DNA from: a virus
Lineage: Duplodnaviria; Caudoviricetes
Reading direction: 5' to 3' (one strand)
IMG/VR virus record: IMGVR_UViG_2522572155_000001
Coordinates: 32,001 to 96,000 of that record
DNA length: 64,000 bases
A program made the translations under genes and the position numbers. Shown piece after piece: positions 1 to 48,534 of this stretch; positions within the stretch are counted from its first letter, which is position 1; every line of letters begins with the position of its first letter. Below the pieces are notes generated by a model. The model was not told the origin of the DNA and ran no database searches. It saw only the letters and a list, made by a program, of their open reading frames with translations.

Positions 1-200
1 AACCAGTCGAGCAGTAGCTCGCCGTACTTCGGTCCCTCCACGTGGGCGACCGGGGCATCCGCGCCCCGGCCACTGCGCACGAACTCCAGCCGGAACCTGC
101 CGTTGCCCACCGAATAGCAGAGCAGGGGGCGGCCCTTGAACTCGCCACGGTACCCGCTCTCGTGACGCTTGAGGTACTTCAGGGGGAAGGTGTCGTCCAT
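1..200 (-). CDS. hypothetical protein, truncated by window start
   Basis: ATG at 200 abuts the ArdC stop; open frame MDDTFPLKYLKRHESGY... runs off the window. Confidence 0.6.
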   Translation of the reverse strand, partial: MDDTFPLKYLKRHESGYRGEFKGRPLLCYSVGNGRFRLEFVRSGRGADAPVAHVEGPKYGELLLDW

Positions 201-1300
201 CACGCAGCCTCTCCGTTGATCGGCTCCTGGGTGTTCTGCTGCACGCCGAGAATGTAGTCGGCGGCCTTCTGCGCGCGGGCGGCGGCCATGACCAGCCACT
301 TGCGGTCCTTGGCCGTCTCGTCCTTGATGGCCTTCGCCCAGCCGCTGAGGTAGGCCGCGCTCTGGTCCAGGTCGCCGTCAATGTTGGCCATGCCGCAGAG
401 GAACGCCGAGCCCATCTCGGCCACAAGCTCCTCCTGCGCATAGGGCTGCCCGCTGCCGAAGCCCGTCCACTGCTTGACGCGGTGCAGGCGGCTCTCGTGG
501 CCGGTCGAGTGCACAAGCTCGTGGAACAGCGTCGCGTAGTACGACTCCTCGGTGCGGAAGTCGCCGCGCTCGGGCATCTGCACGTGGTCGAGGAAGGGCG
601 CGTAGTGGGCGCTGTTGCCGCCGTGACGGAGGCTGGGGGCGTTGGGCATTTCGGTGACGATGGACTCGGCGGCTTCGATCGGAGTGAACTCGACCTCGGG
701 CTCGGCCTCCGGCTCCTCCACGATGCTGGCGAGGTCCAGGTTGTCGCACTGCTCGACGTTGAAGACCTTGAAGTAGGTGAGCAGCAGCCGCTGGACCTGC
801 TTGGGCTTGCCGGTCTTCGGGTCCAGGATGACCTCGCCCGTCTTCGGGTCCTTGGCGTCGGCCCTGAACGGCTTCCAGAGGGTCACGAGGGTGGACTCCT
901 CGCCCTTGATGACGCCGCCCCGGTAGCCCGCCTTGACGGCCTCCATGTATGCCGTCTCGCCCGCCTCATCGTCCGCGTGCCCGTTGGCCTTCAGCCACAC
1001 GGCCTTGGCGCGCTTGGCGGCCTGGTTGAACGTCAGCCAGCGCGGATCGTTGTAACCCATCGAGGCGGCGGCGACGTTGAGGAGGAAGACGTTGATGCCC
1101 CGGTAGGCACGGCCGGTGATCGCGTTGCGCATCTGCTCGATCGGCTGGCCGGGCTTGCTGCTCCAGGGCTTGCGCCAGGGCTTGATGCCCGCGTCGAGCG
1201 CCTTGTTCATGGCCTCGTTGACGGCGACGTAGACGTCAAAGCGCTCGGCACTGGAGCGGCGCTTGCGGGGGGACTTGCGGGAGGTCTTCTTCGCGGCCAT
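200..1300 (-). CDS. ardC: ArdC-like antirestriction protein (ssDNA-binding N-domain + zincin-like domain)
   Basis: PWRKPW, YRGIN, RWLTFNQ, VFNVEQ and HELVHSTGH...EELVAE motifs. Confidence 0.9.
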   Translation of the reverse strand: MAAKKTSRKSPRKRRSSAERFDVYVAVNEAMNKALDAGIKPWRKPWSSKPGQPIEQMRNAITGRAYRGINVFLLNVAAASMGYNDPRWLTFNQAAKRAKAVWLKANGHADDEAGETAYMEAVKAGYRGGVIKGEESTLVTLWKPFRADAKDPKTGEVILDPKTGKPKQVQRLLLTYFKVFNVEQCDNLDLASIVEEPEAEPEVEFTPIEAAESIVTEMPNAPSLRHGGNSAHYAPFLDHVQMPERGDFRTEESYYATLFHELVHSTGHESRLHRVKQWTGFGSGQPYAQEELVAEMGSAFLCGMANIDGDLDQSAAYLSGWAKAIKDETAKDRKWLVMAAARAQKAADYILGVQQNTQEPINGEAA

Positions 1301-4096: not shown

Positions 4097-4570
4097 CTAT
4101 ACATCATCGAAGATGATGTTGCACGAACCGCACTCCGCACATCGTCCAGCCTGACCGGTCCCATGCTGCCCTGTCCGTAGCTGCAAGTTCTCGATGCGGT
4201 TATCGGTCTTGTCGCCGTTCTTGTGATGGACCGTCTCATACGATTCGAGCGGCCGACGAAGGTGATTCGCCATCACGTACCGATGCTCTGCGACGTAGCG
4301 TGAGGAGGGACGCTTCATCGCTTCGAGGAACGGCCACTCGTCGGAGGGCATCACCTGAACGTAGCCCGAGTCGGCTAGGTGCCGCCCCCAAATCTCGGGA
4401 GGATCGCCTGCCGCGACGGCGCGCTGCACCGTCTGGAAGTGCACTCCATACCGACGCCCGAGGGCTGTCCATGACGTACCCTCGGCTCTCAGGCGTTTCG
4501 CCTCTCTCCTCTGTTCAGCCGTGAGCTTCTGCTTCCGCCACTTACGCTCGGCTACCTGTTCCTCTATCAC
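4097..4570 (-). CDS. HNH endonuclease with N-terminal HTH
   Basis: YVAEHRYVM...VHHKNGDKTDNRIENL. Confidence 0.9.
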   Translation of the reverse strand: MIEEQVAERKWRKQKLTAEQRREAKRLRAEGTSWTALGRRYGVHFQTVQRAVAAGDPPEIWGRHLADSGYVQVMPSDEWPFLEAMKRPSSRYVAEHRYVMANHLRRPLESYETVHHKNGDKTDNRIENLQLRTGQHGTGQAGRCAECGSCNIIFDDV

Positions 4571-11190: not shown

Positions 11191-14100
11191 TCAGGGCTGA
11201 TGGTAGCCCAGGGCCGTGTGCACATCCTCGACCGGCACCTTGAAGCCCGGATCGGCGTACGGGTTCCGGCTGCCGTTGTGTTCGCTCACCGTGCGGAAGC
11301 GATAGTGTCCGCCCTCGTTGATGAGTTCGTGAGGCGTGCCGTAGGTATCCTTGAACTGCCCGCCGCCCATTCGCATCGCCTGTTCCAGGCTTTCCCGGTC
11401 GTAGTGGTGAGTCTCGGTGCAGGGGTTCGGGTGCTCCTGGGGCTCGACCCACGGGTGATACTCGACCGGCGGTCCGTCGAAGTGGTGATTGAGCCCAATC
11501 GGCTGCCAACCCTGAAAGTCCTCAATTGAGCGTCGGGGGTAGCCTAGCTTCTCGTCAATTGCACGGTGCTCATCCAACTCGTGCTCGGCGTAGCGGTGCG
11601 CGGAACGCGGCCGTCCGCACTGCCCGCACTCGTCGTAGTCGGACCACTGACGCTGATCCTCTACGGTGACGTTGTGCTTGCTCGTGGTGTCGAACACGAC
11701 CGGGTGGCCGTGTTCGGACTCCTTCATCACCGTTAGGTCGCGCGGGGGCGGCGGGCGCTTCTCATCGCCGCGACAGTAGGCACACTTGTCGCTCGGCAGT
11801 CCCATCAGGGTTCCGGTGCCCGGGACGACCTTGTACGTACCGTGACAGTTATGGCACTGGCCGAGGAGATTCACCTTCTTCATGTAAACCAGGAGATCGG
11901 TGTAGTCCTTCCCGTCGTGGATCAGGTCCATACCCGTAGCCGCCTTCTGCTGCTCGATGATGTTTCGGGCCATCGTCTCGGCCTCGGCCTCGGCCTTATC
12001 GGGCGGGAGCGACTTCAGGTACTCGGTAATCAGGTGATTGGGCACCGTATTCGGATCAGGCTCAGGCGTCCAGTCTTCGGGGAAGTAGTCGGGCACGTCG
12101 GACGACAGCTTAGCGCCCGCGAGCAGCCCTGTCACCTGCTGGAGCAGCCCTCGGTTGTCCAGCATCTTGTAGGTGAGGTTCGAGGCGGCGAAGTCCCCCT
12201 TGCCCGCCGCCTGGTCGCGCATCCGCTTGCGGTGTAGCTGCCGGTAGAACATGACGGCCTTGTCGGGCTCGTAGCGCAGCAGCCGATCCATCTTGTCGGC
12301 GTTGATGAGCGCCTGCGTGTATGCCTCGTTCTCCTCGTGCTCGGGATCGTGCGCGAGATCGGGCTGGGGCGGGACGAGCCACTTGTCCTGGATGACGTTG
12401 TAGCCCGAGCGTAGACCGGGCTGGTAGAGGTCGGCGGGCTTGATGCCGCGCGCCACGACGTAGGTCTGTAGCTCATGTGTGGTGCCCGGCATGATGAGGC
12501 CGTCGCACGCCTGGATCATCAGGCCGATCATCTCCGAGCGCGACCACTCGGGGAACTGCTCGGCGTCCACGAACAGCGACACGTCCACGTCCGAGTGATC
12601 GGCGTACTGGTACGTCGTGAGGCTACCGGTGAGATACAGGCTGCCCCACTTCTCGCAGCCCGTGTAACCCGCCTCGCTTAGGATGCTGTAGATCGAGTCC
12701 ATGATCCACAGCCGATGCTCGTGCTTGAGGCGCGGAGTGGGGGAGGCCGGGTCATCCCATACCGTGGGGTCGAGTGTGTCGCGGATCGGGTCGAGGACGT
12801 TGCCCTGGCGCTTCGGGATGCGCGGGTCCGGCTTCACGGAGTCGTTGATGTCCTCCTCGATCACGCGCTTCCACCACGGACCCTCGTATGGGCCGCCGTC
12901 GCTCTCGCCCTCAAACCACATCATGAGGGCGTTCTGCATCGCCTTGTCGGCCATCTCCGGCGTCGTGCCGGGGTGGATCCTCACGAGGCGGTCGATCGCG
13001 TCCTGGCGCGAGAGGTTGTCGCCGTTGACCATGAGGTTCCACGCCGACATCTGGAGATCGGAGTCGGGGTACCGGCGGAAGTCAGTGGCAACACGCGCCG
13101 CACGTAGCTGCGACGGGGGTACGATGTTCTCCTCGCCCGTCTCGGCGTGCACAACGCTGACAAGCGGCTCGTGCGGGTCATTGACGATGTCGGTCACATA
13201 GTGCGGCTGACCGTTGAGGAGAACGCGCTGCCCGTGCGTAAGCTGGCGCTGGAAGAGTGCCTGTGCGTCCTCCGTCGACACCGGCTGAGCCATCGGGTGC
13301 TCCGCGTTGGTGAAGACGTGATCGCACGCGCCCTGCTCGCAGCGCTGTAGCTGGCGCCTGATGTTTCCAATCTGGACCGGGACCGGCTGTCCTCGGCCGC
13401 CGCCATGGACGCTGCCGAAGCCGGTAACGATGTGGCGGTTGCCGTTCGCGTCGGGCCACGAGTACATCGGGTGGCCCTGGGCGTTGTACTTGTCCAAGGA
13501 CCAGTGCGGCATCTCGGCCGCCATGAAGTCGGCCTCGGACTTATAGTTCGCGGCTAGGCGTGATTGAGCGTCCGGCAGTGCGGACAGACGCCTGTCGGCC
13601 CGGGCAGCGCGATCGGCTCCCGGCAGCCCGAGCAGGTCACGACGGTCGTCCGGCCGCCCTGCGCCGATGTGAGTGCGATCTTCTTCATGCTCGTTACGCG
13701 ATTGTACCGGGCCGCCCTGTAGTGGTCCATGGCGCTTCGCCACGGTACGGTCAAACAATGTCTCCTGCCCCGGTGGCGTCCTCTTCGGCCTCGGCCGAGG
13801 GTCGTAGGGCTCAATTGACCGCCACCTCGGGATCAGTGCGCCGCCGAGGTGGTTGTAGTACTGCGCGGCGATCGGGTCAATCTCCTGGTGGAACTCCAGC
13901 GGACGGAGCTTGCGCCAATCCGCTACGCCGTTGTCGGCCATGTGCTCGGTCAGGGCTTCGCGAAGATAGTCCTCGTGACCGGCCTCCTTCGCGTGCTGGA
14001 GGAGGAAGTTCGCCCATTCGGGACGGTAGCCCGGCTGTACCTGGACGCGCTGGTTCCGCCCGTCCTGCCACGTGTTCCACGACGACTCGAACCGGTCAGG

Positions 14101-17100
14101 CTCAATCATCGAGCCGATGATCTTCTCGTAGTTCGGGTCCCCGATCTCTAGGTCGGGTCCCTCGACGCCATGCTCGTCGGCGTCGCCCTGCGCGATCCGG
14201 TAATCCTCGGGCTCGTTCTCGTACCACTGATCCTGCGCATACGGGTGCATATCCGGCAGATGGTGTTCGCGGCCACCCACGTAGCCGCCGTTGTACCCGA
14301 CCAACTGTGTGAGAGATTCGGGACCGTCCATGTGGTAGGTGTCATCCCACCACGGCTGGTAGGCAGCCGCCTCGGCGCCCTTCGTCCCGAGGTACTCGTT
14401 CATGCGGTCGTTGTACTCGTCGTCCACGTCCTGGTTGGAGCGACCCTTGTACTCCGTCGTCTCCGACCCGGGACCGACCCGGGCGCGGATCACGCCGCCG
14501 CAGTGATCGCACTGCTGGCCATGACCGTATCGACCGTAGTCATGTCCACAGTTGGCGCACTCGGCGTGATCCGGCGTCATCTGGAGCGTAGCGTGGGGAT
14601 GGTTCTTGCGGTCGCGAAGCGACAGGAAGACAGAACTGCCTAGCTCTGCATCATCGCCATAGCTCCCAACGCAATGGCCCATCATGTCGCCCTCGTCGCG
14701 CATCTCATGCCGGTTGTTCAACTGCCGCACGGTCCAGCCGTCAGGGAACTCGTGAACAACCTCACCGAGATCCTTGCGGGCCTTAGCCTCCTGGTCGGCG
14801 CGCCAGTCGGTAATGCGGGTCAGTAACTCCGGCGCACCCAACTGCATGATGTCGATGCCCTGACGGGCCTTCTTCATCTGATCGAGGTCGCGCTGAATCT
14901 CGGCCAGCGTCTGCGGGTTGAGCGGGGACTGCCCGGGACCGGGGACGCCAAGTCCTCCCACATCATTTGGGATCAGGCGTCCCTTACGCCACTCACGAAC
15001 GACCCAGGGGAGCAGCTTGTCGGCCTGGCGGTAGCCCTGTTCATCAAGGAAACGCAGGAACTCCTCACCCTCCGGCGTCTGCATGTCCGGGCGCGCGGCG
15101 AGCCAGTCGAACTTGGACGCGGTGCGCCCCATGTAGGTGTGTGCGCCCCACGGGCAGGTGCACGGCTGCCCGGTGGTGATGTGCGAGTGCGGGCGTCGCT
15201 TCACGCTCTTGTGAGGCGTTGCGCCCTGGCGGGGCGTCAAGCCCTCCGGCAGAACGCGCGGGTCAACCTCGCCCGGCACCGCGCCCATGTCCTCGAAGGG
15301 GTACTCACGGCCGGGCACAGGATCATCGCCGCCGACCATCTGGCGGTGTCCGCACCCAAGGCACAGGAGAGTTGGAACGCCGGTCTGTTCGAGGTACATC
15401 TGGTGCTCGCCGCATTCGGGGCATAGCAGCCACTCTTCGTCTACAGAGGCCCACTTAGAGGGCGTTACCGAGCCAGTCGTAGGTCCTAGAGGGTGCTCGG
15501 TTTCCGGAAGGGCGCGCAAGGCATCGCCCAGTGGCGCAATTAGCTGCTCGTGCATCTTCATGCGATCCCCAAAGGTGTAACCGGACGAGCAGCCGTTGCA
15601 CACGTAGCCGTTCATCTCAGGCACGATCGAGAGGTCGCTGCCGCACCTCGGGCACGGGGCACCGAACTGCATCAGGTAGGGCCTCTTGGGCGGGTTGACA
15701 GCAGATGTCTTAGAGGGCGTTACCTCGCCGTCCTGGTCGTCAACTAGGCGCAGGCGCTCAGGAGCGATGTGGGTGACATCGCTCTGCCAGGCGCCAGGGC
15801 GACCCCTGCCTGGCGCGGGGTCCCAGTAGTCCGCCGGAACCTGCTTGAACCACGGATCGCGCTTCAGCCTACCGACAGCGCGAGGATGAACCTCCCACAA
15901 GTCGTGCGGCTCGATGCCGTTACAAATCTCGGCGTAACGCCGCGCCTCTGGGAGGTTGTCCCAGAAGTGCATCGGGTTGCCCGTAACGGGGTTGGGGACC
16001 ATACCCTCAGCAAGCACCTGCTCGCGTATGGAGGAAGGCAGAAGCCTGTAGTACGGACGTACGCGCGCCGAGGCGACAGAGGACCGACGAGTCATCTTCT
16101 CCCAATGCTCGTACGTCGGGGCAAAGCGCAGACCGCCTCCAGCGAAGCGTCTCGCCTTCTCGATGGCATTCGGGTCAGGAGACCTACTGTCGCTCAGGGT
16201 GTACCACCCGCTCGGATGGATGACAATAGGACACTCGTAGTCCTGCGGCCAGGGGCAACGGGTCGCAGCTACATCGTCGTGGTGCGGGGCCAGCCCCGGA
16301 GCGCGGACGTTCCACATCACGGGCTCGTTGTTGACGAGGAAGCCCTTGCCCCACTCGCCGGGAGTCCAGTCCATGTGGAGCGGCGTCGAGGCCGTGCGCT
16401 CCTGGTCTACAGAAGATGCCTTAGCGGGCGCCGCCGGGATGTACGCCGGGAGATGCGTATCTCCGCGACGATGCGCGACGGTGGCACGATGCCAGCCATC
16501 GAGCAAGGTGCCCTCATGGTCGATGACCACTTCGGGCATCGGCCCAGGCATCTGCGCGAGGCTATTCACCCGGTCGGGCTCCACGTCCAGGGAGCCCACC
16601 CCGGCGATGCTCGCCAGCGGGTGTTGTGTGCGCGTCCAAGAGGGATGCTGGTGGATCTTGCGCTCCATGCGCTCCCACCAGATGTCGTTATCCACCCGAG
16701 AGCGTCCACGCGAGCCCTTGTGGAGGGCACGCATGTGCTCCATAACCTGCTCAGGTGAGATCACGGCCACAGACTCTACAGAACCGCCATTAGGGGGCGC
16801 TGACGCCATCCGGCTCCAGTCGCGAACCTTGTTCTTGAGCCACGGGTTATCCCAATGGAAGGCGTCAATCGGCTGGCCACCCGCACGAAGCTCCTCGGTG
16901 AGCCGGTTGAACAGACCCTTCCCACGGTGCTCAGGATGCGTGTACGCCGAGCCAAGCATGATGCCGCCTGGCACACCCTGCCAGGTCACGCTCGCGACCG
17001 GCTCGCCGTTGTAGTACGCGACGCGACCGTCGCCCTGGCCATGCTTCGTCGTCAGCGTGTCACCGCCACGGCTATCGAAGCGCGGGACGAAGGTCCCGGT

Positions 17101-18936
17101 GTCGTGGGAGAACCATCCCTCGTCGGCGGGACGAATCTCGTACGGGTCTACAGAATCCGCGTTAGAGGGCGTTGACGCCTGACGAGTACTCGCCCACTCG
17201 TTCACACGCGCCATGTACTCGGGCTTCGGATCGGAGTTCTTCATCCCTAGCGGCTGGTCAACGCGCGCCATGTTCGACCGGAGGCCGGAGTAGAAGCTCA
17301 CATGCGGGATGTTGTCCGGGTCTCGGAGGGAGTGCGGGTAGTTCGACCAGCCAGCCGGGTCAATGCGGTGGTGAAGTTCCAGGACCGGGTGCCCTGCCGC
17401 CTTCGCATCCTCGTAGTACTCGGACAGCGGGCCGTAAGGGATGTCCACTCCGCTGTCATCCTCATCTGGGTCGAGCCAATCCCCCTGAGGGTGGCTGGCC
17501 CACATGCCCGCCGGAGAGTCGGAGTAGTCGCCGTTCCAGCAGTTGTGCATCAGTGCACCCTCGCGGTACACATCGCTCCAGGTGGTCGGACGGCGGATGG
17601 TCCAGCCGTCCGGGAAGGCGTGGACGACCTCGGACTGATCGGGTGCGCCAATGGCCGCCTCTACTTCGGCGGCGCGACGGAGCTTTTGCGTCCTGGTCTC
17701 CGCTCCCACGCGCTGGGAGTTTACAGAAGGCCCGTTCGCAGGCGCTGACGCGACGGTGCGATCGAAGAGCGACGCCTGTCCCTCGGGATCCTGGGTCGGC
17801 ACCACGGGCCACGGCTTGCCGTTGACGCCCGTGATGTTGACGGCGTCACCCGTGGGGACGCGCCACTCCTTGAGTGAGCCCATCGGGTAGCCGTGACCAT
17901 TCTTGACCGGCTGGGCCTCAACGACGCCGATGTGGTTCGGATTGACCTTAGCGAACCACTCGGGGTCGACACTAGTGAAGAGCGGGTCAGGCGGACCGCC
18001 GCTCCAGCCACGCATCGGCGCATACGGGTTACGCCACCACTCGAATGCCTCATGCGCCTGCTCCTCTGGCGAGAGGTGACGGTAGACGCTCTGGGCGGTG
18101 TAGATCGGCTTCTCAGGCGACCCGAGGGCGTAGGCGTCCTCGTAGGGGTAGTAGCCGTACTGCGCCCACTCCTCAGCCGGAAGGGTCTGAAATCCGCCGC
18201 TCATACCCTTTAGCGGGTGGCCCTCGGGTAGCAAGTGTGAGTAGAACGGCTTACGGCCCAGGAGGAGGTCATCAAGCGCGCGAGGATTGCCCCGCGACCA
18301 GTCATGGTCACCGAACATCTTGCGTAGCCACGGCTCCTTGGCTCCCTCGCCCTTCTCGGCCATCTCGACCAGGCGGTGGATCGGGAGGCGGCCGGAGGCA
18401 ACGTCGGCGCCCTCGCGCATGGCCATGAGGATGTTGTGCGCGATCGTCGGGTCGTCGGTCAGCGAGATCGTCTCATCGTCACCGCCGCCGAGTCCACGAC
18501 CGGCGTTGACGCCGTTGAGATCGAGTTCATGACGCGACCGCAGAACCCCGGACTTCAGAACGTCGGGCAGGTTCGTGGTGACGTGATAGAGCTTCTTCGG
18601 CAGCGGCTTCCAGGACCCGGTGTTCTCGTGGTACGGCGCCCAGGAGTTCGAGTCGGCCTCGTAACCGCTCGGGCGGTACCCGCGAGCCACCGCCTCTGCG
18701 GGGGTGAGACGGCCGGTCGCGATGGCATGGCGGGCGGCGCGATCCCACTCCTTCTCCAGGCTCCGAACCGTCTCGTGATCGCGGTCTAGGTGCCGCGTCC
18801 GCGCCCCGTAGTCCTCGTATGGCTCGTACGGCCGCTGCGAGGGATAGCCTCGATACTCGTCACGGGTCTGGTTGAGGATGTCGTGGTTCACCGGGATGAC
18901 CGGCATCGCCTTGCGCCTGAACGGATTACGCATCAT
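11191..18936 (-). CDS. giant polyvalent protein (two ART-like, two PcfJ-like, GNAT, ParB-N-like, Zn ribbons, HicA-like, Pol-beta nucleotidyltransferase)
   Basis: LYHVTT..ISLTDD..EWRV; EGALMHNC and EGDMMGHCVGSY; THPEHRGKGLF; LLDGWHR; GSLTTYQYADHSDVDV. Confidence 0.8.
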   Translation of the reverse strand: MMRNPFRRKAMPVIPVNHDILNQTRDEYRGYPSQRPYEPYEDYGARTRHLDRDHETVRSLEKEWDRAARHAIATGRLTPAEAVARGYRPSGYEADSNSWAPYHENTGSWKPLPKKLYHVTTNLPDVLKSGVLRSRHELDLNGVNAGRGLGGGDDETISLTDDPTIAHNILMAMREGADVASGRLPIHRLVEMAEKGEGAKEPWLRKMFGDHDWSRGNPRALDDLLLGRKPFYSHLLPEGHPLKGMSGGFQTLPAEEWAQYGYYPYEDAYALGSPEKPIYTAQSVYRHLSPEEQAHEAFEWWRNPYAPMRGWSGGPPDPLFTSVDPEWFAKVNPNHIGVVEAQPVKNGHGYPMGSLKEWRVPTGDAVNITGVNGKPWPVVPTQDPEGQASLFDRTVASAPANGPSVNSQRVGAETRTQKLRRAAEVEAAIGAPDQSEVVHAFPDGWTIRRPTTWSDVYREGALMHNCWNGDYSDSPAGMWASHPQGDWLDPDEDDSGVDIPYGPLSEYYEDAKAAGHPVLELHHRIDPAGWSNYPHSLRDPDNIPHVSFYSGLRSNMARVDQPLGMKNSDPKPEYMARVNEWASTRQASTPSNADSVDPYEIRPADEGWFSHDTGTFVPRFDSRGGDTLTTKHGQGDGRVAYYNGEPVASVTWQGVPGGIMLGSAYTHPEHRGKGLFNRLTEELRAGGQPIDAFHWDNPWLKNKVRDWSRMASAPPNGGSVESVAVISPEQVMEHMRALHKGSRGRSRVDNDIWWERMERKIHQHPSWTRTQHPLASIAGVGSLDVEPDRVNSLAQMPGPMPEVVIDHEGTLLDGWHRATVAHRRGDTHLPAYIPAAPAKASSVDQERTASTPLHMDWTPGEWGKGFLVNNEPVMWNVRAPGLAPHHDDVAATRCPWPQDYECPIVIHPSGWYTLSDSRSPDPNAIEKARRFAGGGLRFAPTYEHWEKMTRRSSVASARVRPYYRLLPSSIREQVLAEGMVPNPVTGNPMHFWDNLPEARRYAEICNGIEPHDLWEVHPRAVGRLKRDPWFKQVPADYWDPAPGRGRPGAWQSDVTHIAPERLRLVDDQDGEVTPSKTSAVNPPKRPYLMQFGAPCPRCGSDLSIVPEMNGYVCNGCSSGYTFGDRMKMHEQLIAPLGDALRALPETEHPLGPTTGSVTPSKWASVDEEWLLCPECGEHQMYLEQTGVPTLLCLGCGHRQMVGGDDPVPGREYPFEDMGAVPGEVDPRVLPEGLTPRQGATPHKSVKRRPHSHITTGQPCTCPWGAHTYMGRTASKFDWLAARPDMQTPEGEEFLRFLDEQGYRQADKLLPWVVREWRKGRLIPNDVGGLGVPGPGQSPLNPQTLAEIQRDLDQMKKARQGIDIMQLGAPELLTRITDWRADQEAKARKDLGEVVHEFPDGWTVRQLNNRHEMRDEGDMMGHCVGSYGDDAELGSSVFLSLRDRKNHPHATLQMTPDHAECANCGHDYGRYGHGQQCDHCGGVIRARVGPGSETTEYKGRSNQDVDDEYNDRMNEYLGTKGAEAAAYQPWWDDTYHMDGPESLTQLVGYNGGYVGGREHHLPDMHPYAQDQWYENEPEDYRIAQGDADEHGVEGPDLEIGDPNYEKIIGSMIEPDRFESSWNTWQDGRNQRVQVQPGYRPEWANFLLQHAKEAGHEDYLREALTEHMADNGVADWRKLRPLEFHQEIDPIAAQYYNHLGGALIPRWRSIEPYDPRPRPKRTPPGQETLFDRTVAKRHGPLQGGPVQSRNEHEEDRTHIGAGRPDDRRDLLGLPGADRAARADRRLSALPDAQSRLAANYKSEADFMAAEMPHWSLDKYNAQGHPMYSWPDANGNRHIVTGFGSVHGGGRGQPVPVQIGNIRRQLQRCEQGACDHVFTNAEHPMAQPVSTEDAQALFQRQLTHGQRVLLNGQPHYVTDIVNDPHEPLVSVVHAETGEENIVPPSQLRAARVATDFRRYPDSDLQMSAWNLMVNGDNLSRQDAIDRLVRIHPGTTPEMADKAMQNALMMWFEGESDGGPYEGPWWKRVIEEDINDSVKPDPRIPKRQGNVLDPIRDTLDPTVWDDPASPTPRLKHEHRLWIMDSIYSILSEAGYTGCEKWGSLYLTGSLTTYQYADHSDVDVSLFVDAEQFPEWSRSEMIGLMIQACDGLIMPGTTHELQTYVVARGIKPADLYQPGLRSGYNVIQDKWLVPPQPDLAHDPEHEENEAYTQALINADKMDRLLRYEPDKAVMFYRQLHRKRMRDQAAGKGDFAASNLTYKMLDNRGLLQQVTGLLAGAKLSSDVPDYFPEDWTPEPDPNTVPNHLITEYLKSLPPDKAEAEAETMARNIIEQQKAATGMDLIHDGKDYTDLLVYMKKVNLLGQCHNCHGTYKVVPGTGTLMGLPSDKCAYCRGDEKRPPPPRDLTVMKESEHGHPVVFDTTSKHNVTVEDQRQWSDYDECGQCGRPRSAHRYAEHELDEHRAIDEKLGYPRRSIEDFQGWQPIGLNHHFDGPPVEYHPWVEPQEHPNPCTETHHYDRESLEQAMRMGGGQFKDTYGTPHELINEGGHYRFRTVSEHNGSRNPYADPGFKVPVEDVHTALGYHQP
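15438..15465 (-). repeat. dif-like 28-bp site 6 (in-frame)
   Basis: ACGCCCTCTAA-GTGGGC-CTCTGTAGACG. Confidence 0.75.
15693..15720 (-). repeat. dif-like 28-bp site 5 (in-frame)
   Basis: ACGCCCTCTAA-GACATC-TGCTGTCAACC. Confidence 0.75.
16404..16431 (-). repeat. dif-like 28-bp site 4 (in-frame)
   Basis: GCGCCCGCTAA-GGCATC-TTCTGTAGACC. Confidence 0.8.
16773..16800 (-). repeat. dif-like 28-bp site 3 (in-frame)
   Basis: GCGCCCCCTAA-TGGCGG-TTCTGTAGAGT. Confidence 0.8.
17145..17172 (-). repeat. dif-like 28-bp site 2 (in-frame)
   Basis: ACGCCCTCTAA-CGCGGA-TTCTGTAGACC. Confidence 0.8.
17718..17745 (-). repeat. dif-like 28-bp site 1 (in-frame)
   Basis: GCGCCTGCGAA-CGGGCC-TTCTGTAAACT. Confidence 0.7.
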
Positions 18937-21900
18937 ACATTCTGGCCGCGCTCAGCAGCGTTTCCGGGTTGTTGGCCGCCGGGTCTTCGAGCACGATGTC
19001 GGTGAGGTGACGTAGTACCTCGCCCATCTGCGGGCCGGGCGTGAAGCCAGCACGGATGAGGTCGTGCCCGTTGATCGCCAGATGGCTCGCGTTCGTGGGC
19101 TCGCCCGCTTCACGTACTCTGTTCACCAGTTCGCGCTGCTTATCCACGTTGAGCTTCGGATCGCTCGGGTATTCCAGCTTGCCGCCCTGGTCGGCCTGGC
19201 GCAGGAGGAGAAGGTCATCGGCGTTCTCGTCGCCCACCTTGTTGATGAACTTTCGCGCGCCGTTGGTGGAGTGGAAGGCAGGGAACATGTGATGGCGCAC
19301 GATGTGCGTCATGTAGCCGATGTCGTCGTTGGAGACGCGGAGGTCACGCAAGTCCTGCTCGAACTGGTCAGCCCCGAGCGGAGCGTGGTCGGCTCCCCAT
19401 ACAGTGCGGGATCCGTTCGGATTCTCCTGGCGCCACTCGTAGTAGTGACCCTCGCCGTCCTGCCCGCAGGTGGGGCACACCTTGCCGGGGATCGGGTTCT
19501 TCACGCGTAGGCCGGTGGCGTGGTCGGTCTGCGAGCACGGCTTGCACTCGAACCACTGCGAGTCCACCTTGCCGTTGTCGTGGTTCGCCGCCGCTAGCTG
19601 GAGTAGCGGGTGTGCCCCGAGTTGCTTGGCGTGACGGAGGACGAGCAGGTTGTGCTCTCCGAGGTCGCCCTCGGGGTGATGCGGGTTGTACTGCTCGAAG
19701 CCCATCGTGCGGGCGAGGCCGGGTAGGAAGTAGGGGAGAGTGCCTGTCTCGTGCGCGAGCCGCAGCGACCGCTCGGTGTACGGCGCGGGCTTGGGTTCCC
19801 GCGTTTCGGGGTCGAGCCCGAACATCTTGAAGAGTTCATTGCGCTTGCGATCGGCCGGGAGGTGCACGAGGCGATCGGCGTACATCGCCATCTGTGCCTT
19901 GGTCATCTCGTCGGGTTCGAGTCCGTGGCGCGCGTTGAGCGCGAGCGCGCGCATGATCCGCAGCGGGTCGTCCTCGAAGCTCTTGGTCGAGGTGGTCGAG
20001 AACGTGCCGTGCCGGATGGCGTCGGCGCCGCCGTAGGGGTCCACGAGCTTGCCGGTGTCGAGGTCGACGCCCATCGCGTTGACATTGAAGTCTCGCCGGG
20101 CGAAGTCTTCCTCGGGGGTCATCGTATGGTCGGCCTGCACGTCGAAGTCGGTGTGCTCGGGGCCGGTCGAGCGCTCGCGACGGGGGAGGGCGATCTCGAT
20201 GACCTCGCCGTCCTGGCGATAGCGGATGACGCTGAAGTCCTGGCCGTGCTGCATGACCTTACCGGGGAGCCTGCGCAGGGCGGCCAGCACCTGCTGATGC
20301 GGGAGCCCGGTGACCATCAGGTCCAAGTCCTTGGGGGCCTCGCCCATGACGGCGTCGCGGACCGCGCCGCCGACCACGTAGACGTGCCCGCCCTCCTGCT
20401 TGAGGGCCTGGTAGACGCGCCAGGCAAGGTCATCCTGGGCGACGAGGTTGGCGATGTGCTGGCCGATCTCCATGTTGGACGTGATCGGCCGTGCCGACAC
20501 GGGCTGGTATGCGGGATTGGGGGCGAACTTCCAGCCTCCGGGGCCGTCGTCGCTGATGCCGGTCATGACGTGCGTGCCGACGATCGCGTGCGGAGGGATA
20601 GTGCCCTGGTGTGCGAGCGAGTGATGCTGGTCGCTTTCGAGGATCACTTGCGTGAGTTCGGGATTGTCTCCCAGGCCAACTCCCTCCGCCCACCTGCCCT
20701 TGTTGTCGTACTCGCCGGTGTCCCACATCCCAGTAGGAGTGGCGTCCTCGTCGGGGTTGATGTTCTCCGGGTCGAGATAGCGCGGATCTACCTCAACTAC
20801 CGTGGCGTCATCTGACGCGGTCGTGGGAGCGATGTTCCACGCAAAGTCCTTGTCGTTAGTTAGGTACACGTGGCCCGGGCGCGGGGTCATCCTCGGGTCC
20901 CAGTTATGCTGACCTAGCTCATCCCACGGACGCAGACCCTGGCGGGTGATGTCAGCGGCACGACTGCTCGTCGTGCCATGGTAGAGCTTCTCCCACTTAG
21001 GCCAACCCTGGTAGCGAGACCGTGCTAGTTCCGGCTGCGTCTCGTCCTCCCAATAGCCTTCATCAACCGGGCGGGCGACGCGTGCCAGCTTCGTGTCGTT
21101 ACCTGCGTCGTCGCGCAGATGGACCGACTTGATGACGAATTCCGGGTGCTGGTAATACCAGAGTTCCAGCATGTGCCGAACCGTGTAGGGCATGTTGGTG
21201 AGCGAGCGGACGATTACCTTGCCGCCCGGCTCGTATGTGCCCTCAACGATGCCGCCCGGGGTGAACTTGCCCTGGATGTCGGAGTGGCGCTCGCCGGGGT
21301 GACCGACTGTCACGGAGTCCTCGTCCACGTCATAGATGAACGGTACGGCACCTTCAAGGAGCTTGGAGGGATCCTGGTCGGCCGACCAGCGGTAGATACG
21401 GTGCCCGGCATGGATGAAGCCCATCCGGGTGAGGACGTGGAACTCTTCAGTCGCCGCAAGCCGCTGCCCGTCCGGCGAGTACTCAGCGGCGAGGTGCATG
21501 TGGAGGTCCGTGTAGACTCGCTGAAGGCGCGAGAGGATCGCGTCAGTGACGTGGAATCCCACGGGTGAGGAAATCCAGGTGAGCAACGGGCCTTCGAGGG
21601 CAGCGCAGCCAACCGGCGATCCGTTCTCGTAGGCCGTGTAGTAGGTGCTCTCTGCGTGGCGGAAGTAGCGGTGATTGACACCGGGTACCTTGTCTGCCTC
21701 TGCATTGCTCGTGCGGAGGATGACGCCCTCGAAACGGGAGAAGTTCGCCCCCGGAGGACCGGGCGGGCCATCCGGGTAAGCCGAGCGGGGCATAGGGAAG
21801 TGGCGCAGGAAGTAGTCGCGCACGAAGTCGTGCGTGGCGGGCACCACCGCACTGACACCGCCGTTCAGGAAGATGAGACGGTCGCCGCCAGCAACGTTGA

Positions 21901-23530
21901 CCGAATCGAACCCATTCGCGGCCAACCAGTTAGCCGCCTCAGCCAAGTCACTCTGCACGTCCCCCTCAAAGGCGTGCGGATCAGCCTTGATCTCCTCAGG
22001 ACTCCACGCCTGCCCGAAGCCAACCTGTCCAACCGGCTGATCGCCACGGTAGACGTAGATGCCGAACCCGCGAGTGGCGAGATCAGCATCCCAGGGCCAC
22101 GGCCCGCGTCCATGAGCCGCAACGACGTTCGTCGGCTCGAAGCTCTGCTCGGAGAAGTTGGGCGGGAAGGTGGCGTCCTGGTCAGGAAGCTCGGGGAACT
22201 TGGACGGCTGCACCGTGGTGTCGGTCGTCCCCATCGGCTCCTCCTGCTCACGGTGACGAATGTAGAGGTCCCAGCGGGGGAAAATCTGGTCGCACTCGGG
22301 GCACTTGAAGACTCCACCGGGCGCGCGCTCGTCACGCTGCGGCTCGTTGAAGAACTGGCCGCCCTCGGGCTCGTTGTCGGTTGGGCTCCAGAGGTTGTCG
22401 GTCTGTAGGTCTTCGATGCGCTTGACGACGTTATCCCCGGCCATCAGGCGCAGACCGCTGTCTGTTGCCCACTCGCTCAGTGCGGTGAACAGGTACGGGC
22501 GATCCCGGAAGCGCGCCACCTTGGCGACAGCACCTTCGATGTGAATCGCGCCGGTTACGGCGGCCTCCCTGGGTCCCACGCCGTAGTCAGCTTCGATCGC
22601 CGTGGCGAGGTCCCATGCGGAGCGCGCGAGCAGCAGATGCTCTGTATCAGGTAGCCAGGCGTAGATCAGGCGGGATGACTTCTTCGGAGCGAAGTCATCG
22701 TTGATCGGCTGCCCGCTGGAGTCCACGAGCCCGCCCCACTCCCAGCCCACGTGCTTGTCGTAGTCCTTGAGCACCCGCTCCAGGGCGTGGAGAGCGATGT
22801 TCGACCGTAGCTGCCAGTTGGCGCTGCCCATATTGACCGTCACGAATCCGGCGGCGAACGGGCCGGTGTGGTCGACCGGGATCCCGGCCTGGCGAGCTAG
22901 CTCCTCGTGGGAGTCGTCGGCCGAGAGATGAAGGTTGCCATTGCCGTAGACGACGTTGTAGGTCTTCGGGCCGTCCGGGGCTCCGGGGGTGTCGTGGAGA
23001 TAGCGCTGGTTGTAGTTCTCGACCGCCTGCGCCTCCTCGCCGGGGTAGGCGTCTCCGAGGTCGAACGCGAGCTTGGCGTAGCGGCCCTCTAGCGCGCGAT
23101 CGGCGCGCGACATGAAGCGGACAGTGCGCGGCTCCGGATCGATGTCCGGGATGACCTCATGCCCGGCGAAGATAGGATGAGTAGTTCGCTTGTAGAGCAT
23201 CGGTGCCGTCCTCCACCGAAGGTGCTCCGGGTGAAGCCGCAGGCCGGGATCCTCTTCGTCCAGCCGGATGCCCTCGATAGACGGATCGGCAGGCGGTAGG
23301 ACGTGGCGATCACCGCAGATATCCAGAGCGTGCTTGCCGTCCGTCCAAAAGTAACAACCATCCTTGCGCCCGACGTGTCCCCCGAGCTTGCTCTGAAGCC
23401 AGCGTGAGGTGACGTAGCACTGGCCCACCGCAGGTACCGGGTGACCACGAAAGGCGTCAGGGCGCGTGTCATCAGACCACGCCTGCGTCGCGGCATTCTG
23501 GAGGGCATGGATTTGATCCTGGCTAAGCAT
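18926..23530 (-). CDS. giant multidomain protein: YunG-like N-terminus, ART/Tpt1-like domain, C-terminal CCA-adding enzyme with HD domain
   Basis: GQCYVTS; LYHGTT..GLRP..VYLT; [37 protein letters not shown]. Confidence 0.85.
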
Positions 23531-45839: not shown

Positions 45840-45874
45840 GTCTATCCGTTACGACTTAGGTCGCGCCCGAAAAG

Positions 45875-45947
45875 TGGCTCTAGCAGGAGTCGAACCTGCG
45901 GCCTCTCCCTTATGAGGGGATCGCTCTGGCCTCTGAGCTATAGAGCC
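45875..45947 (-). tRNA. tRNA-Met/Ile2 (CAT)
   Basis: cloverleaf, loop CTCATAA. Confidence 0.85.
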
Positions 45948-45953
45948 GGTGAG

Positions 45954-46025
45954 AGCCGCGTGCGGGACTCGAACCCGCGATGCCTGCTTGGAAGGCAGGA
46001 GTGTTGGCCACTACACCAACGCGGC
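45954..46025 (-). tRNA. tRNA-Gly (TCC)
   Basis: cloverleaf, loop CTTCCAA. Confidence 0.9.
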
Positions 46026-46136
46026 GTGCAGAGAAACGGTGCTCTGATGCACCAGTTTCGCCTCGCGAGATTCTTACCTCCCGCGCCCTTCGGAAGAGGT
46101 GAAGGTCACCATCCATCTACCCGAAAGGGAAACATC

Positions 46137-46379
46137 ATGTCTCAGGTTGTCAAGCTCGACAGTCGCACGTTCGTAGCTGTCCCACAGCTAGCAATCGGCG
46201 CCCATACCATCGACGGATACGTGTTCGGCGGGATGCCGTACTACAACCCGGCGCCGGACTCCATTAGCGCCGTCACGATTTGGTGGAAGCTACTCGCGGA
46301 CCCGAGCTACGCGTCGTTGCCGCCGGTCACGTCGATCAGCGTGGAGACCACGGTCTCCGGTACCGTCAACCCGGTCTAG
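46137..46379 (+). CDS. hypothetical protein, antisense to the tRNA array
   Basis: RBS AAAGGGA; MSQVVKLDS... 80 aa. Confidence 0.65.
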   Translation: MSQVVKLDSRTFVAVPQLAIGAHTIDGYVFGGMPYYNPAPDSISAVTIWWKLLADPSYASLPPVTSISVETTVSGTVNPV

Positions 46380-46579
46380 GAGAAGATCCGAGCGATCTGC
46401 TCGTGCGTCGCTCCCTGGGCGAGATAGCGACGCACGTCGTGGTGACTGAGGGCGAAGCCGTCCAAGCCCTTTGCATCCACGAGGCTCATCACCTGGTCGT
46501 CAACGAAGCCGAGCGAGCGAAACGTCTCGCTACGGTACGCCCTGATCTTGTCACCATTGAGGTCGGTGGTACCTGCCAT
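46376..46579 (-). CDS. hypothetical protein
   Basis: ORF track. Confidence 0.5.
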   Translation of the reverse strand: MAGTTDLNGDKIRAYRSETFRSLGFVDDQVMSLVDAKGLDGFALSHHDVRRYLAQGATHEQIARIFS

Positions 46580-46583
46580 TCTA

Positions 46584-46655
46584 AGCTCCCTATCAGAATC
46601 GAACTGATTTCCCGGGGTTACAAGGCCCGTGCATCTCCATCAATGCTTAGGGAGC
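46584..46655 (-). tRNA. tRNA-Thr (TGT)
   Basis: cloverleaf, loop CTTGTAA. Confidence 0.8.
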
Positions 46656-46665
46656 GGGACGAGCC

Positions 46666-47199
46666 CTACTTCCTCGGGCTCTTCTTGTGTCGATGCAAGC
46701 GAGAAGCATGCGCGTTGAGTCGCCTGCGGGCGAGCTTCGCCGGGCTTGCTGCGAAGTTCACGTGGTGAGCCTCGGAGGCCGTGTGATACGGCTGGTGCAC
46801 CTTGTAGCCGTAGCGATGGAGCACGCGGAGTAGGTCATCCCATTCCGTAACGTCGAGACCTAGCTGATAGGGCCGGAGCTTGTGCCCGACGTGGCCGATG
46901 GTGCCATCTCCGAGCAGCAGGTGGGAGCCCTGGGTCGGTGGGTTCGCGGGCAGGAACCCGGGCAGGCGCTTCGTCCATCCGTTGAACAGGTACGCCTGGT
47001 CGTGAAGCTTGGTCTTGTGCCTCTTGTTGAACGACTTGATCGTGGATACGCGACGATCTGCCGAGACAAGGTGTCCCTTCCAGCCGTTGTTACGCGCGTC
47101 CTGGAGTGCCCATGCGAGGCCCCGGTAGACGGGCACATTGTCGAACTTGACGATGTGCCACGCCGGGTAGACCGTGCTCAGAAGCGGTAGGCGGCTCAT
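46666..47199 (-). CDS. peptidase M15-like cell-wall hydrolase
   Basis: DQAYLF..ANPP..SH..GLDV..EAHHV. Confidence 0.6.
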   Translation of the reverse strand: MSRLPLLSTVYPAWHIVKFDNVPVYRGLAWALQDARNNGWKGHLVSADRRVSTIKSFNKRHKTKLHDQAYLFNGWTKRLPGFLPANPPTQGSHLLLGDGTIGHVGHKLRPYQLGLDVTEWDDLLRVLHRYGYKVHQPYHTASEAHHVNFAASPAKLARRRLNAHASRLHRHKKSPRK

Positions 47200-47234
47200 G
47201 CCGCTTACGTGAGAGGCTCAACGATGAAGTAAGG

Positions 47235-47512
47235 TCACGCCCTATAGCCAGGATTCTGTCGTGGTCGATCATCTACCTCTGTATCGCGTATCGATACGCG
47301 ATACAGGCCACACCTTTACGTGGTGGCTGCCCTCAACCTTGCTCACCCCTGGTTGCCCTCGGGTGGCTATTGCGAGGTTGCACCCTGCCTCCCCACTGAG
47401 GTTCGAACGGCCGTAAGCCTCCCTCCGGAGGATCAGTATCTGCGACGAGGTTTGCCCCCGCCAGGGTGTCCTGAACTTCCTCTGGCCGAGGCCAGCGATC
47501 GACTAGGCGTGA
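47235..47512 (-). ncRNA. rnpB: RNase P RNA (compact, ~278 nt)
   Basis: P1 TCACGCC/GGCGTGA; P2 GTCGATC/GATCGAC; P3 CTGGCC/GGCCAG; GAGGAAGTTCAGGA pairs ACAGAATCCTGGCT (P4 with bulged U); CACCCTGG/CCAGGGGTG; GAGCAAG. Confidence 0.85.
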
Positions 47513-47513
47513 G

Positions 47514-47586
47514 AGCCCACGCGGGGATTCGAGCCCCGGACCTCTCCCTTACGAGGGGAGCGCTCTACCTGCTGAGCTACGTGGGC
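47514..47586 (-). tRNA. tRNA-Thr (CGT)
   Basis: loop CTCGTAA; T-loop reads CTCGAAT. Confidence 0.88.
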
Positions 47587-47591
47587 GTGCA

Positions 47592-47664
47592 AGCCACCAC
47601 AGGGAGTCGAACCCTGGACCCCTGCCTTACCATGGCAGTGCTCTGTCCTCTGAGCTATGGCGGC
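47592..47664 (-). tRNA. tRNA-Thr (GGT)
   Basis: loop ATGGTAA. Confidence 0.9.
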
Positions 47665-47667
47665 GTA

Positions 47668-47739
47668 AGGGGTATGTGGGAATCGAACCCACCTTTGCGA
47701 CATGGCAAGCCACCGTAATAGCCGATATACGAATACCCC
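47668..47739 (-). tRNA. tRNA-Gly (GCC)
   Basis: loop TTGCCAT. Confidence 0.85.
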
Positions 47740-47752
47740 TTGTCTACTGCTA

Positions 47753-47823
47753 GCGCCCCAACGAGGAATCGAACCTCGCATCTCGGATTCGAAGTCCAAG
47801 CGCCAGACACACTGGCAAGGGCG
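47753..47823 (-). tRNA. tRNA-Arg (TCG), irregular acceptor stem
   Basis: loop CTTCGAA, good T- and D-arms. Confidence 0.65.
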
Positions 47824-47827
47824 GAAG

Positions 47828-47900
47828 TGCCCCCTACTGGATTCGAACCAGTGACCTCGGCCGTCGCAGGGCCGCGCTCTATCCACTGAGCTAAGAGGGC
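47828..47900 (-). tRNA. tRNA-Arg (GCG)
   Basis: CGGCC-CTGCGAC-GGCCG. Confidence 0.9.
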
Positions 47901-47902
47901 AG

Positions 47903-47936
47903 AGGGTGGGGTCACACACCGCTAGGACCCCACCCT
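47903..47936. other. hairpin between HNH gene and tRNA
   Basis: AGGGTGGGGTC...GACCCCACCCT, 11-bp stem. Confidence 0.6.
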
Positions 47937-47937
47937 G

Positions 47938-48534
47938 CTACTGATCGAACCGGCCTTCGAGCCAGTCCTTTACGAGGCGAGCCTCGTATACCTGGTCATC
48001 GCCTTCCGCGAGCAATTCGATGATCTTCGGGTGCTCGCGACGAAGCTGTTCCAGGAGGCGACGGGCGTTCGCCCGTTCCTCCTGCGTGAGGTACCCCACG
48101 ATCGAGACGGTGTTATCTCTGTCGTGGAGGTCACGGTGGCAGTCGATGCACACAGGGATTGTGCACCGTGACCGGGCGGCGACCTGTACGTAGTTGGATA
48201 GCTCCCGCATCATCCAACGGTTGACGTAGTGGTGCCTCGTGGAGTCCCCAGGACGGCCGCAGCAGCGACATTCAGGCTGAACCTGTCTCAGCGCTCTGTA
48301 GGCGTTCCTGCGCTCTACGATCTCGGCCGGGGGAGTACCCTGGTCTAGGGCATCACGCAGAGCCTCCACGATTTGCCCTTGCGTCGGGTGCGTATCGAGC
48401 AAGTCGTCAAGCTCGATCCCCGTCACCGTGGTGAGGAGTTCAAGCTGCTCGTGCGTTGCCTTGCGGCCATTGGCCGAAGCGTCGTACCACCAGGTGTCCC
48501 CGGTGGGGAGAGTGATGGGACGGGCGCGTGACAT
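47938..48534 (-). CDS. HNH-like endonuclease within tRNA array
   Basis: CRCCG..TRHH..VCIDCHRDLH. Confidence 0.7.
   Translation of the reverse strand: MSRARPITLPTGDTWWYDASANGRKATHEQLELLTTVTGIELDDLLDTHPTQGQIVEALRDALDQGTPPAEIVERRNAYRALRQVQPECRCCGRPGDSTRHHYVNRWMMRELSNYVQVAARSRCTIPVCIDCHRDLHDRDNTVSIVGYLTQEERANARRLLEQLRREHPKIIELLAEGDDQVYEARLVKDWLEGRFDQ

Follow-up and report, generated by a model that had tools for sequence, protein, structure and literature searches.

Does a short sequence that recurs six times within a single phage gene join protein domains, mark sites of DNA recombination, or do both? The question is raised by a stretch of prophage DNA of 64,000 nucleotides (the window, to which all coordinates refer), and our answer, drawn from sequence analysis, is that the repeats may serve as linkers and as recombination sites at once. 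The gene (11191..18936, (−) strand) is an open reading frame whose translation has 2581 amino acids, and it lies in a 165-kb prophage of a 6.64-Mb host genome in the company of portal, terminase and tail-fibre-like genes. Pfam placed a PcfJ-like domain at residues 1399–1457 of the protein, with weak GNAT, Zn-ribbon and pol-β-NTase-like segments, and a protein search returned free-standing homologues for each segment. Next to it stands a second polyvalent protein gene of 1534 amino acids (18926..23530, (−)), with an ART-like domain and a CCA-adding enzyme. The window also encodes an ArdC-N and MPTase-PolyVal zincin metallopeptidase (200..1300, (−)), a candidate processing protease for polyvalent proteins on the strength of Iyer et al. 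2017 (PMC5512222). With several unrelated effector domains, a phage context and an associated MPTase, the 2581-residue protein is a polyvalent (multi-effector) protein. Like those described by Iyer et al. 2017 (PMC5512222), it unites PcfJ-like, GNAT, ParB-like, Zn-ribbon and NTase domains in one polypeptide, has virion genes adjacent and shares its element with an MPTase-PolyVal; that paper reports neither junction motifs (the word ‘linker’ does not occur in it) nor conservation of junctions at the DNA level.

The six repeats are 28 nt long, co-oriented on the (−) coding strand and all inside the 2581-residue gene. They share the junction peptide [AT]-P-[SAP]-[NK]-x-x-[SA]-V-[DEN]. Site 1 (17718..17745; A-P-A-N-G-P-S-V-N, residues 398–407) is the most divergent copy and has a left arm without TAA. 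It is followed by site 2 (17145..17172; T-P-S-N-A-D-S-V-D, residues 589–598), site 3 (16773..16800; A-P-P-N-G-G-S-V-E, residues 713–722), site 4 (16404..16431; A-P-A-K-A-S-S-V-D, residues 836–845), site 5 (15693..15720; T-P-S-K-T-S-A-V-N, residues 1073–1082), in which the right arm diverges (GCT GTC AAC), and site 6 (15438..15465; T-P-S-K-W-A-S-V-D, residues 1158–1167), all on the (−) strand. With up to three mismatches allowed, the repeat pattern gives six matches in the 64-kb window against 0.03 expected and is not found elsewhere in the 6.64-Mb genome. An earlier reading of the same DNA, made from the sequence alone, had described these six repeats with a different spacer in each and proposed a genome-wide scan, which confirmed both the copies and their confinement to this gene. 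It had also stressed that the intervals are multiples of 3. The lengths are correct (255, 711, 369, 372 and 573 nt), but they are no independent evidence, because the other two forward frames of the motif contain TAA and TAG and only one frame is open, which forces the phase. Two further degenerate half-sites proposed in that reading turned out to be weak: positions 15205–15220 encode T-P-H-K-S-V with ordinary codons, and positions 16070–16085 resemble the right arm at no more than 7/10.

We asked what lies between the repeats. Free-standing homologues and matches in other giant proteins start and stop at the six junctions, so the intervals correspond to whole domains, as the sequence-only reading had held. 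Cassette 1 (17173..17715, (−); 181 amino acids) gives a weak Pfam match to PcfJ and has many free-standing homologues of 150–210 amino acids that end at the junctions. Cassette 2 (16801..17142, (−); 114 amino acids) is a GNAT-like domain on the basis of weak matches, with free-standing homologues of 135–199 amino acids, 50–70% identical, that begin directly after the junction. Two free-standing homologues of cassette 3 (P0136 and P0151) terminate at the junction; this segment (16432..16770, (−); 113 amino acids) is named ParB/sulfiredoxin-like from its DGxHR motif only. Cassette 4 (15721..16401, (−)) is a 227-residue domain with no family assigned and a free-standing homologue of 264 amino acids (P0014). 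Cassette 5 (15466..15690, (−); 75 amino acids) shows weak Zn-ribbon matches, and comparison with the next Zn-ribbon module gave no significant similarity.

Boundary peptides alone would place no demand on codon choice, whereas the codons here are constrained. Identity at third codon positions among the six copies exceeded that in every one of 20,000 codon-usage simulations (z = 5.2), and three comparison polyvalent genes with recurring linkers showed no excess (z = −1.5, 1.3 and −0.05). Mean pairwise identity was 0.82 in the left arm and 0.76 in the right arm, against 0.33 in the spacer and 0.35–0.43 in the flanks. The claim of DNA-level conservation around a free 6-nt centre thus held up, and so did the accompanying observation that T- and A-ending codons recur in a G/C-ending gene: TCT-GTA is found in 5/6 sites, whereas gene-wide TCT encodes 13.7% of serines and GTA 11% of valines, at a GC3 of 81%. 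In two junction codons the third base T is held despite a varying amino acid. As internal controls, an LFDRTVA motif that occurs twice in the same gene differs by five synonymous changes, and P-S-K in the neighbouring 1534-residue gene is written with TCC rather than TCT; the junction-like P-S-K peptides of that neighbour use ordinary codons, and it carries none of the 28-nt sites. A search for a conserved RNA fold at the six sites found none, so RNA structure offers no competing explanation. We conclude that conservation at the junctions is at the DNA level and not of the peptide alone, and that two arms of about 11 bp are kept around a free 6-nt centre, the geometry of Xer/dif-type sites.

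The strongest competing account takes the repeats as peptides only, either linkers or protease sites at which the ArdC-type MPTase (200–1300) or a head protease would release the domains of a virion-delivered protein; their DNA identity would stem from copy-and-paste growth or from gene conversion, with the likeness to dif a coincidence. We consider this a real possibility, if one that falls short of being probable. Junction peptides do recur in other polyvalent proteins with free synonymous variation (K-T-x-G-F-W-D eight times, S-K-W-K seven times and K-T-A-N-x-W-D nine times), and in unrelated phages this protein's GNAT-like domain follows peptides of the A-K-x-S-S-x-D type written in other codons. 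The 2581-residue protein itself contains the junction-like A-K-L-S-S-D, N-D-S-V-K and T-P-H-K-S-V in ordinary codons. One such peptide-only junction is A-G-A-K-L-S-S-D-V (12088..12117, (−)), for the most part in ordinary codons; the closest relative has an orthologue that ends three amino acids ahead of it. An MPTase-PolyVal gene is present in the prophage and another in a second such locus. In sub-groups of the six sites, identity runs 5–6 nt past the 28 nt, as expected of copies and a better fit to copying than to a 28-nt site. The sequence-only reading had named a peptide kept with free synonymous variation in homologues as evidence against recombination; such variation is seen in the junction peptides of distant homologues, while the array itself has no orthologue in the databases searched in which to look for it.

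What the peptide-only account leaves unexplained is the set of kept silent arm positions, the six randomized central bases, the fixed third-base T in the two amino-acid-variable codons and the outer-arm matches to family dif sites described below. Processing of phage cargo has precedents: gp21 cuts the T4 internal proteins, and the inner-body proteins of phiKZ are cleaved at S/A/G-x-E. By analogy, a brief peptide that recurs where modules meet and ends in S-V-D/E/N would suit such a cut site. Nothing else encoded by the 165-kb prophage carries the motif, however, which leaves a general head-protease site unsupported, and peptide sites need no conserved codons. Cleavage at the junctions has never been observed.

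Could the constrained codons instead serve translation? The junctions close alternative frames and carry rare codons, and they might cause pausing between domains or stop ribosomes that have slipped out of frame, perhaps by +1 at CCC-N. Off-frame stops are present in 5/6 sites (TAA in one frame, TAG or TAA in the other), and the junctions, with the rare codons TCA, NCT, TCT and GTA, lie 2.2–2.5 SD under the mean codon adaptation of the gene. Many windows of the gene outside the junctions are equally rare or rarer in codons, however, and we dropped the model of rare-codon pausing as not specific to junctions. Codon identity is also position-specific (TCA at one Ser, TCT at another) and not a matter of any rare codon, the conserved T-TCT is not explained by off-frame stops, and the RNA-fold search found no conserved structure. 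A role in translation is thus unlikely.

We then compared the arms with dif. The dif of the host was located; it is unique in its genome, and the genus conserves it in 18/18 genomes, once in each. With this dif the linker arms agree at 14–15 of 22 positions, and 15/22 is reached by only 43 of 13.3 million genome positions. Agreement rises to 17–19/22 with the dif of sister genera, outer arm positions included, and is 9–13/22 with E. coli dif. When the whole genome was scored against a family-type dif, only the true dif came out ahead of the linkers. The host family also has natural left arms that equal those of the linkers or come very near to them; site 4 shares its left arm with a dif-like site that occurs naturally in a sister genus, and it reaches 19/22 against L045, while site 2 shares 17–18/22 arm positions with dif sites of the host family. 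For an outer-arm test, dif sites of six genera were chosen by their inner core alone. At the ten outer arm positions the linkers matched these at 6–8, against a null mean of 2.5 (P(≥7) ≈ 0.005). Part of the overall resemblance to dif is a look-elsewhere effect, since the locus was picked for its dif likeness out of very many. The likeness suggested in the sequence-only reading, which had set the sites beside E. coli dif alone, was strengthened by the comparison with the host dif that it had proposed and by outer arm positions on which it could not have drawn. On sequence grounds we read the linker arms as resembling dif of the host lineage, with a similarity to the host's own dif that is moderate only.

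The sites also depart from dif. The inner XerD-arm motif TTATG, present in every family dif found, is missing from all six, which have TTCTG (five) or TGCTG (one). GTA is preferred in the linkers although the host dif has G at the same arm position. All six centres are different, the closest pair agreeing at 5/6 positions; none equals the centre of the host dif, and no two sites share the central region expected of recombination partners. Two of the departures from dif are systematic second-codon-position changes, by which a would-be Met and a would-be Tyr become Thr/Ala and Ser. Such losses invite a reading of the array as a relic: Xer-type recombination would have captured cassettes flanked by dif-like sites a single time, and the sites, inactive today, would persist as linkers only. 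The loss of TTATG in all copies, the diverged centres and the absence of current mobility in our searches fit a relic, but silent positions in inactive sites should decay at the rate of the centres, which is not what the copies show; we regard this explanation as very unlikely.

Genes of XerC/XerD type are present in the host (C1:880 kb and C13:169 kb), and the prophage has one integrase, which is the tyrosine recombinase nearest to the array and lies about 106 kb away at the far prophage end. Neither an XafT-like activator nor a serine recombinase was found in the prophage. The prophage sits about 45 kb from the host dif (GC skew along the contig was too weak to place the terminus) and has an 11-bp att core, defined from empty sites in three related genomes, that is unrelated to dif. 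A first att candidate, a 13-bp repeat that includes the TCTACAG of the linker arm, was discarded when the empty sites gave this other core; its likeness to the arm is taken as chance, TCTACAG occurring 17 times in the prophage.

Our search for traces of exchange covered several collections. Among 50,697 phage records, megablast and tblastn found no relatives of the 2581-residue gene, and the cluster that holds the protein consists solely of alternative start calls on the same contig. Protein searches at near and at shorter lengths, and one across 1.84 billion representatives, turned up homologues at the level of domains; an orthologue of the array was not among them. No second multi-site locus was found in 400 family genomes, IMG/VR, JGI metagenomes and 185,579 species genomes. 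Exact-pattern scans yielded 0 matches in IMG/VR, 6 single matches in metagenomes and 10 single matches in species genomes, which is chance level. We had considered the metagenome matches as TTCTG-bearing dif variants and dropped the idea, as their count is that of chance and the genome matches fall in unrelated low-GC taxa. The one relative available for comparison, the closest, lacks the whole array, and its module breakpoints lie at places without dif-like DNA. Gain or loss of domains at the sites, as the sequence-only reading had it, is thus not what this relative displays, and a module turnover that bypasses the dif-like sites favours the peptide-only account. The broader proposals of that reading (recombination, gain or swapping of cassettes, binding by host XerCD and an integron-like array) found no support either: TTCTG or TGCTG stands for TTATG, the spacers are all mismatched, and our searches returned no rearranged variant, excised form or second locus of the repeats.

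Weighing these results, we favour dual-use junctions, in which each repeat is both linker and recombinase site, and give this reading a probability of about 0.4. As protein, each repeat would be a flexible linker of 10–13 residues between whole domains of a phage polyvalent effector, and its peptide would belong to a wider class found in polyvalent proteins. As DNA, the arms would come as near to the family dif as a Ser/Thr/Ala/Pro-rich linker permits. The most economical reading is that a Xer-type tyrosine recombinase acts, or until recently acted, on the sites, with host XerC/XerD as the leading candidates, since the prophage brings along no such enzyme other than its integrase. Recombinase binding, strand exchange and a function in cassette exchange are what we infer here from sequence. 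In this way whole domain cassettes could join the array, drop out or be exchanged with the frame left intact. In classical tyrosine recombination, mismatched centres block complete exchange (PMC5357621). Exchange between different junctions of one genome would be disfavoured, since every centre differs, and full recombination would take place only with same-centre partners such as the same junction in a co-infecting relative. A fuller version, offered tentatively and in our view rather doubtful, is that this temperate phage wrote Xer/dif-type sites into the linkers of a giant effector directed against the host, so that a recombinase, probably host XerCD, could move domains in and out of one frame; the distinct centres would act as heterospecific sites that keep the array stable within a genome and permit position-specific exchange between co-infecting relatives.

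Several known systems combine some of these features. In-ORF sites swap protein modules in frame in the R64 shufflon (Rci/sfx), the Gin/gix tail-fibre switch of phage Mu and the hsdS shufflons. Their repeats are inverted, a dedicated recombinase is encoded alongside, and the C-terminal segments come in alternative forms, whereas here the repeats are direct, no recombinase is adjacent and there are no alternative silent segments; the locus does not fit a shufflon or an invertase switch. Nor does it have the IntI, attI and folded attC of integrons, there being no nearby integrase and no conserved hairpin. Further parallels are found in the pdif dif modules of Acinetobacter plasmids, where several 28-bp sites of 11-6-11 geometry bound exchangeable modules (PMC13141974, PMC5790767). 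They share with our locus conserved arms, variable 6-bp centres and no dedicated recombinase nearby; pdif sites are there intergenic, alternate in orientation, have a canonical XerD arm and flank whole genes. Unlike pdif, the sites here are in frame, all co-oriented and without TTATG, and they flank domains in one phage ORF. The IMEX elements CTXphi, VGJphi and TLCphi, which exploit host Xer, likewise bring along a phage-borne likeness of dif, in which the XerC-side arm is good and the XerD side deviates (PMC5357621). They have one or two attP for integration at dif, whereas this prophage has its own integrase, an unrelated att core and six sites within one gene.

Among the weapons that phages and plasmids bring into cells, polyvalent proteins are the principal multi-tool ones, and their domain sets turn over quickly. 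Should the recombination reading prove wrong, the locus still offers a clear case of a coding segment under strong nucleotide-level constraint and adds a test case to the junction motifs of phage polyproteins. If the linkers double as recombinase sites, domain shuffling in these effectors would be programmed, frame-preserving and carried out by a housekeeping enzyme of the host, and the array would stand beside integrons and dif modules as their equivalent at the level of protein, a natural form of recombinase-mediated cassette exchange.

We found all six 28-nt repeats that a sequence-only reading had located in the 2581-aa ORF (window 11191-18936, minus strand), each on the coding strand with two arms around a 6-nt centre, and the observation proved stronger than first stated. 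A pattern search returned six matches where 0.03 were expected, and the motif, with up to three mismatches, does not occur elsewhere in the whole genome. The sites encode the peptide [AT]-P-[SAP]-[NK]-x-x-[SA]-V-[DEN] at residues 398, 589, 713, 836, 1073 and 1158, which was not found in any other ORF of the prophage. The inter-site intervals are indeed all multiples of three, but this carries no independent weight, because TAA and TAG in the alternative frames of the motif leave one open frame on that strand. Another sequence, Q-x-[ST]-L-F-D-R-T-V-A, was found at window 17749-17769 (residues 387-396), just before site 1, and at 13738-13758 (residues 1724-1733), both on the minus strand; the stretch past the second copy (window ~13560-13735, minus strand) is rich in Arg, Asp, Gly and Ala and looks off-frame, yet a long frame is open.

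With the six peptides held fixed and codons drawn from the usage of the gene, third-codon-position identity among the copies exceeded that in all 20000 simulations (z = 5.2), whereas the same statistic in three comparison genes was -1.5, 1.3 and -0.05. Third-position T is retained in two codons despite a changing amino acid, and TCT-GTA occurs in five of the six sites in a gene with a GC3 of 81%. Two internal controls show that a peptide can recur in this phage without the same codons: the two copies of the heptapeptide LFDRTVA in this gene have five synonymous differences, and P-S-K of the neighbouring giant gene is written with TCC. The arms had mean pairwise identities of 0.82 and 0.76, compared with 0.33 for the 6-nt centre and 0.35-0.43 for the flanking sequence. 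Saturated centres beside near-invariant silent sites cannot arise by simple recent duplication. A translational role for the nucleotide constraint is improbable: no conserved RNA fold was found at the sites, and rare-codon clustering, rejected as an explanation, is not specific to junctions. We tentatively favour, at a probability of about 0.4, junctions of dual use that would serve both as linker peptide and as a Xer-type DNA target that is currently active or was so until recently.

The resemblance to dif, the chromosome-resolution site acted on by XerC and XerD, is real. The probable chromosomal dif of the host lies at C5:425343-425370 of genome G000, ~106 kb past the window end and ~45 kb outside the prophage. 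No other site of that genome has a dif core, and 18 of 18 genus members carry it as one conserved copy; the GC skew is too faint for the terminus to be confirmed. Linkers and host dif agree at 14-15 of the 22 arm positions, and a score as high as 15 occurs at just 43 of 13.3 million positions genome-wide. Scanning 400 family genomes with the linker pattern gave mostly one site per genome, evidently their dif sites (two matched genomes, G142 and G235, are unpublished, and no claim depends on them). These differ from the linker arms mainly in TTATG, the inner core of the XerD arm, with A where the linkers have C, and the family also has natural left arms that equal, or nearly equal, those of the linkers. 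The resemblance also survived an independent test, in which dif sites of six genera were picked by inner core alone to avoid circularity: of the ten outer positions, 6-8 are shared by the linkers, where the null gives 2.5 on average (P(≥7) ~0.005). Ranked genome-wide against a family-type dif, the linkers come directly after the true dif, a result that is partly circular because the reference was assembled from matches to the linker pattern. The two constant departures from dif both fall at second codon positions and turn would-be Met and Tyr into Thr/Ala and Ser, which we infer is what a linker requires. One sister-genus genome has a second dif-like site (L052:10247-10274; G097 contig C13), whose left arm is identical to that of site 4 and which abuts a 3-kb lower-GC segment with a RES-Xre toxin-antitoxin pair; no second site flanking this segment was found, and the arrangement recalls a dif module or the insertion of an element at a dif-like site.

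Recombination at the six sites is unproven and faces specific objections. TTATG is absent from all six, and every centre differs from the others and from that of the host dif; in tyrosine recombinases, centre mismatch limits or blocks full exchange (PMC5357621). Within sub-groups of sites, identity extends 5-6 nt past the 28 nt, the pattern expected of copies. No second multi-site locus was found in family genomes, IMG/VR, JGI metagenomes or 185,579 species genomes, where single matches are at chance level, and the prophage lacks both a second recombinase and a Xer activator. The sites came out of a very large scan, and selection accounts for part of the dif resemblance. That the sites are a decayed relic is very unlikely.

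The window corresponds to C5:255233-319232, enclosed in a segment of 63-66% GC within a 6.64-Mb genome of 72.5% GC. Empty sites in three same-genus genomes delimit a prophage insertion at C5:215,012-379,713 (~164.7 kb), with an 11-bp direct repeat as att core at C5:215,001-215,011 and 379,713-379,723. The reconstructed attP has two direct 13-bp repeats either side of the core and at least five GTGGGAA-type repeats, probably integrase arm sites, and the right prophage end carries a divergent tyrosine integrase. The element is a phage, with a portal, a large terminase and a tail-fibre-like protein. A 1534-aa ORF ending in a CCA-adding enzyme immediately precedes the 2581-aa ORF. The window also contains an ArdC-N and MPTase-PolyVal gene (200-1300), an HNH endonuclease that also has an HTH domain and lies amid short early-type genes (4097-4570, minus strand), and 32 tRNA genes with a tmRNA gene (45874-51638, minus strand). 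The tmRNA specifies an unusual 27-residue tag, and the tRNAs include tRNA-Val(UAC) and tRNA-Ser(GGA), readers of the junction codons GTA and TCT.

The 2581-aa protein matches the polyvalent class described by Iyer et al. 2017 (PMC5512222). Its inter-site intervals hold PcfJ-like, GNAT-like, ParB-like and Zn-ribbon domains and a 227-aa domain of unknown family, and comparison with 1.84 billion representative proteins shows every interval to be a domain mobile on its own: all have size-matched free-standing homologues and copies inside other giant proteins, with homology limits within about three residues of the junctions. The closest relative, IMG/VR contig L057 (metagenome 3300017651), encodes an orthologue of the 1534-aa protein (61-75% identity), and another contig of that metagenome encodes a portal 88% identical. 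The place of the 2581-aa ORF is taken there by a gene of only 394 codons (L057:9474-10658), so that related phages differ by the gain or loss of more than 2300 residues. Its product joins an unrelated 163-aa N-terminal module to an NTase-like domain; it shares residues 2044-2272 of the 2581-aa protein at 72% identity, lacks everything upstream, including the whole array, and ends three residues short of the A-K-L-S-S-D junction. The 1534-aa protein contains a 128-residue insertion (residues 472-599; window ~21733-22117, minus strand) absent from the L057 orthologue, with no junction motif at its ends. The locus is thus a hotspot of module turnover. The breakpoints visible against L057, where the array is wholly missing, made no use of dif-like DNA.

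That the junctions are conserved for their peptide only, with a coincidental resemblance to dif, is a real possibility. Many related giant proteins have recurring junction peptides of their own, and in the DNA of four such proteins the linkers vary freely at synonymous sites, in favour of this explanation. In unrelated phages, A-K-x-S-S-x-D-type peptides stand before this GNAT-like domain and are written with different codons; such peptides also occur outside the array in the 2581-aa protein, in ordinary codons. Peptide selection cannot hold the silent positions of the six sites. Proteins of this class commonly have recurring junction peptides; the unusual feature here is the conservation of the junctions as DNA.
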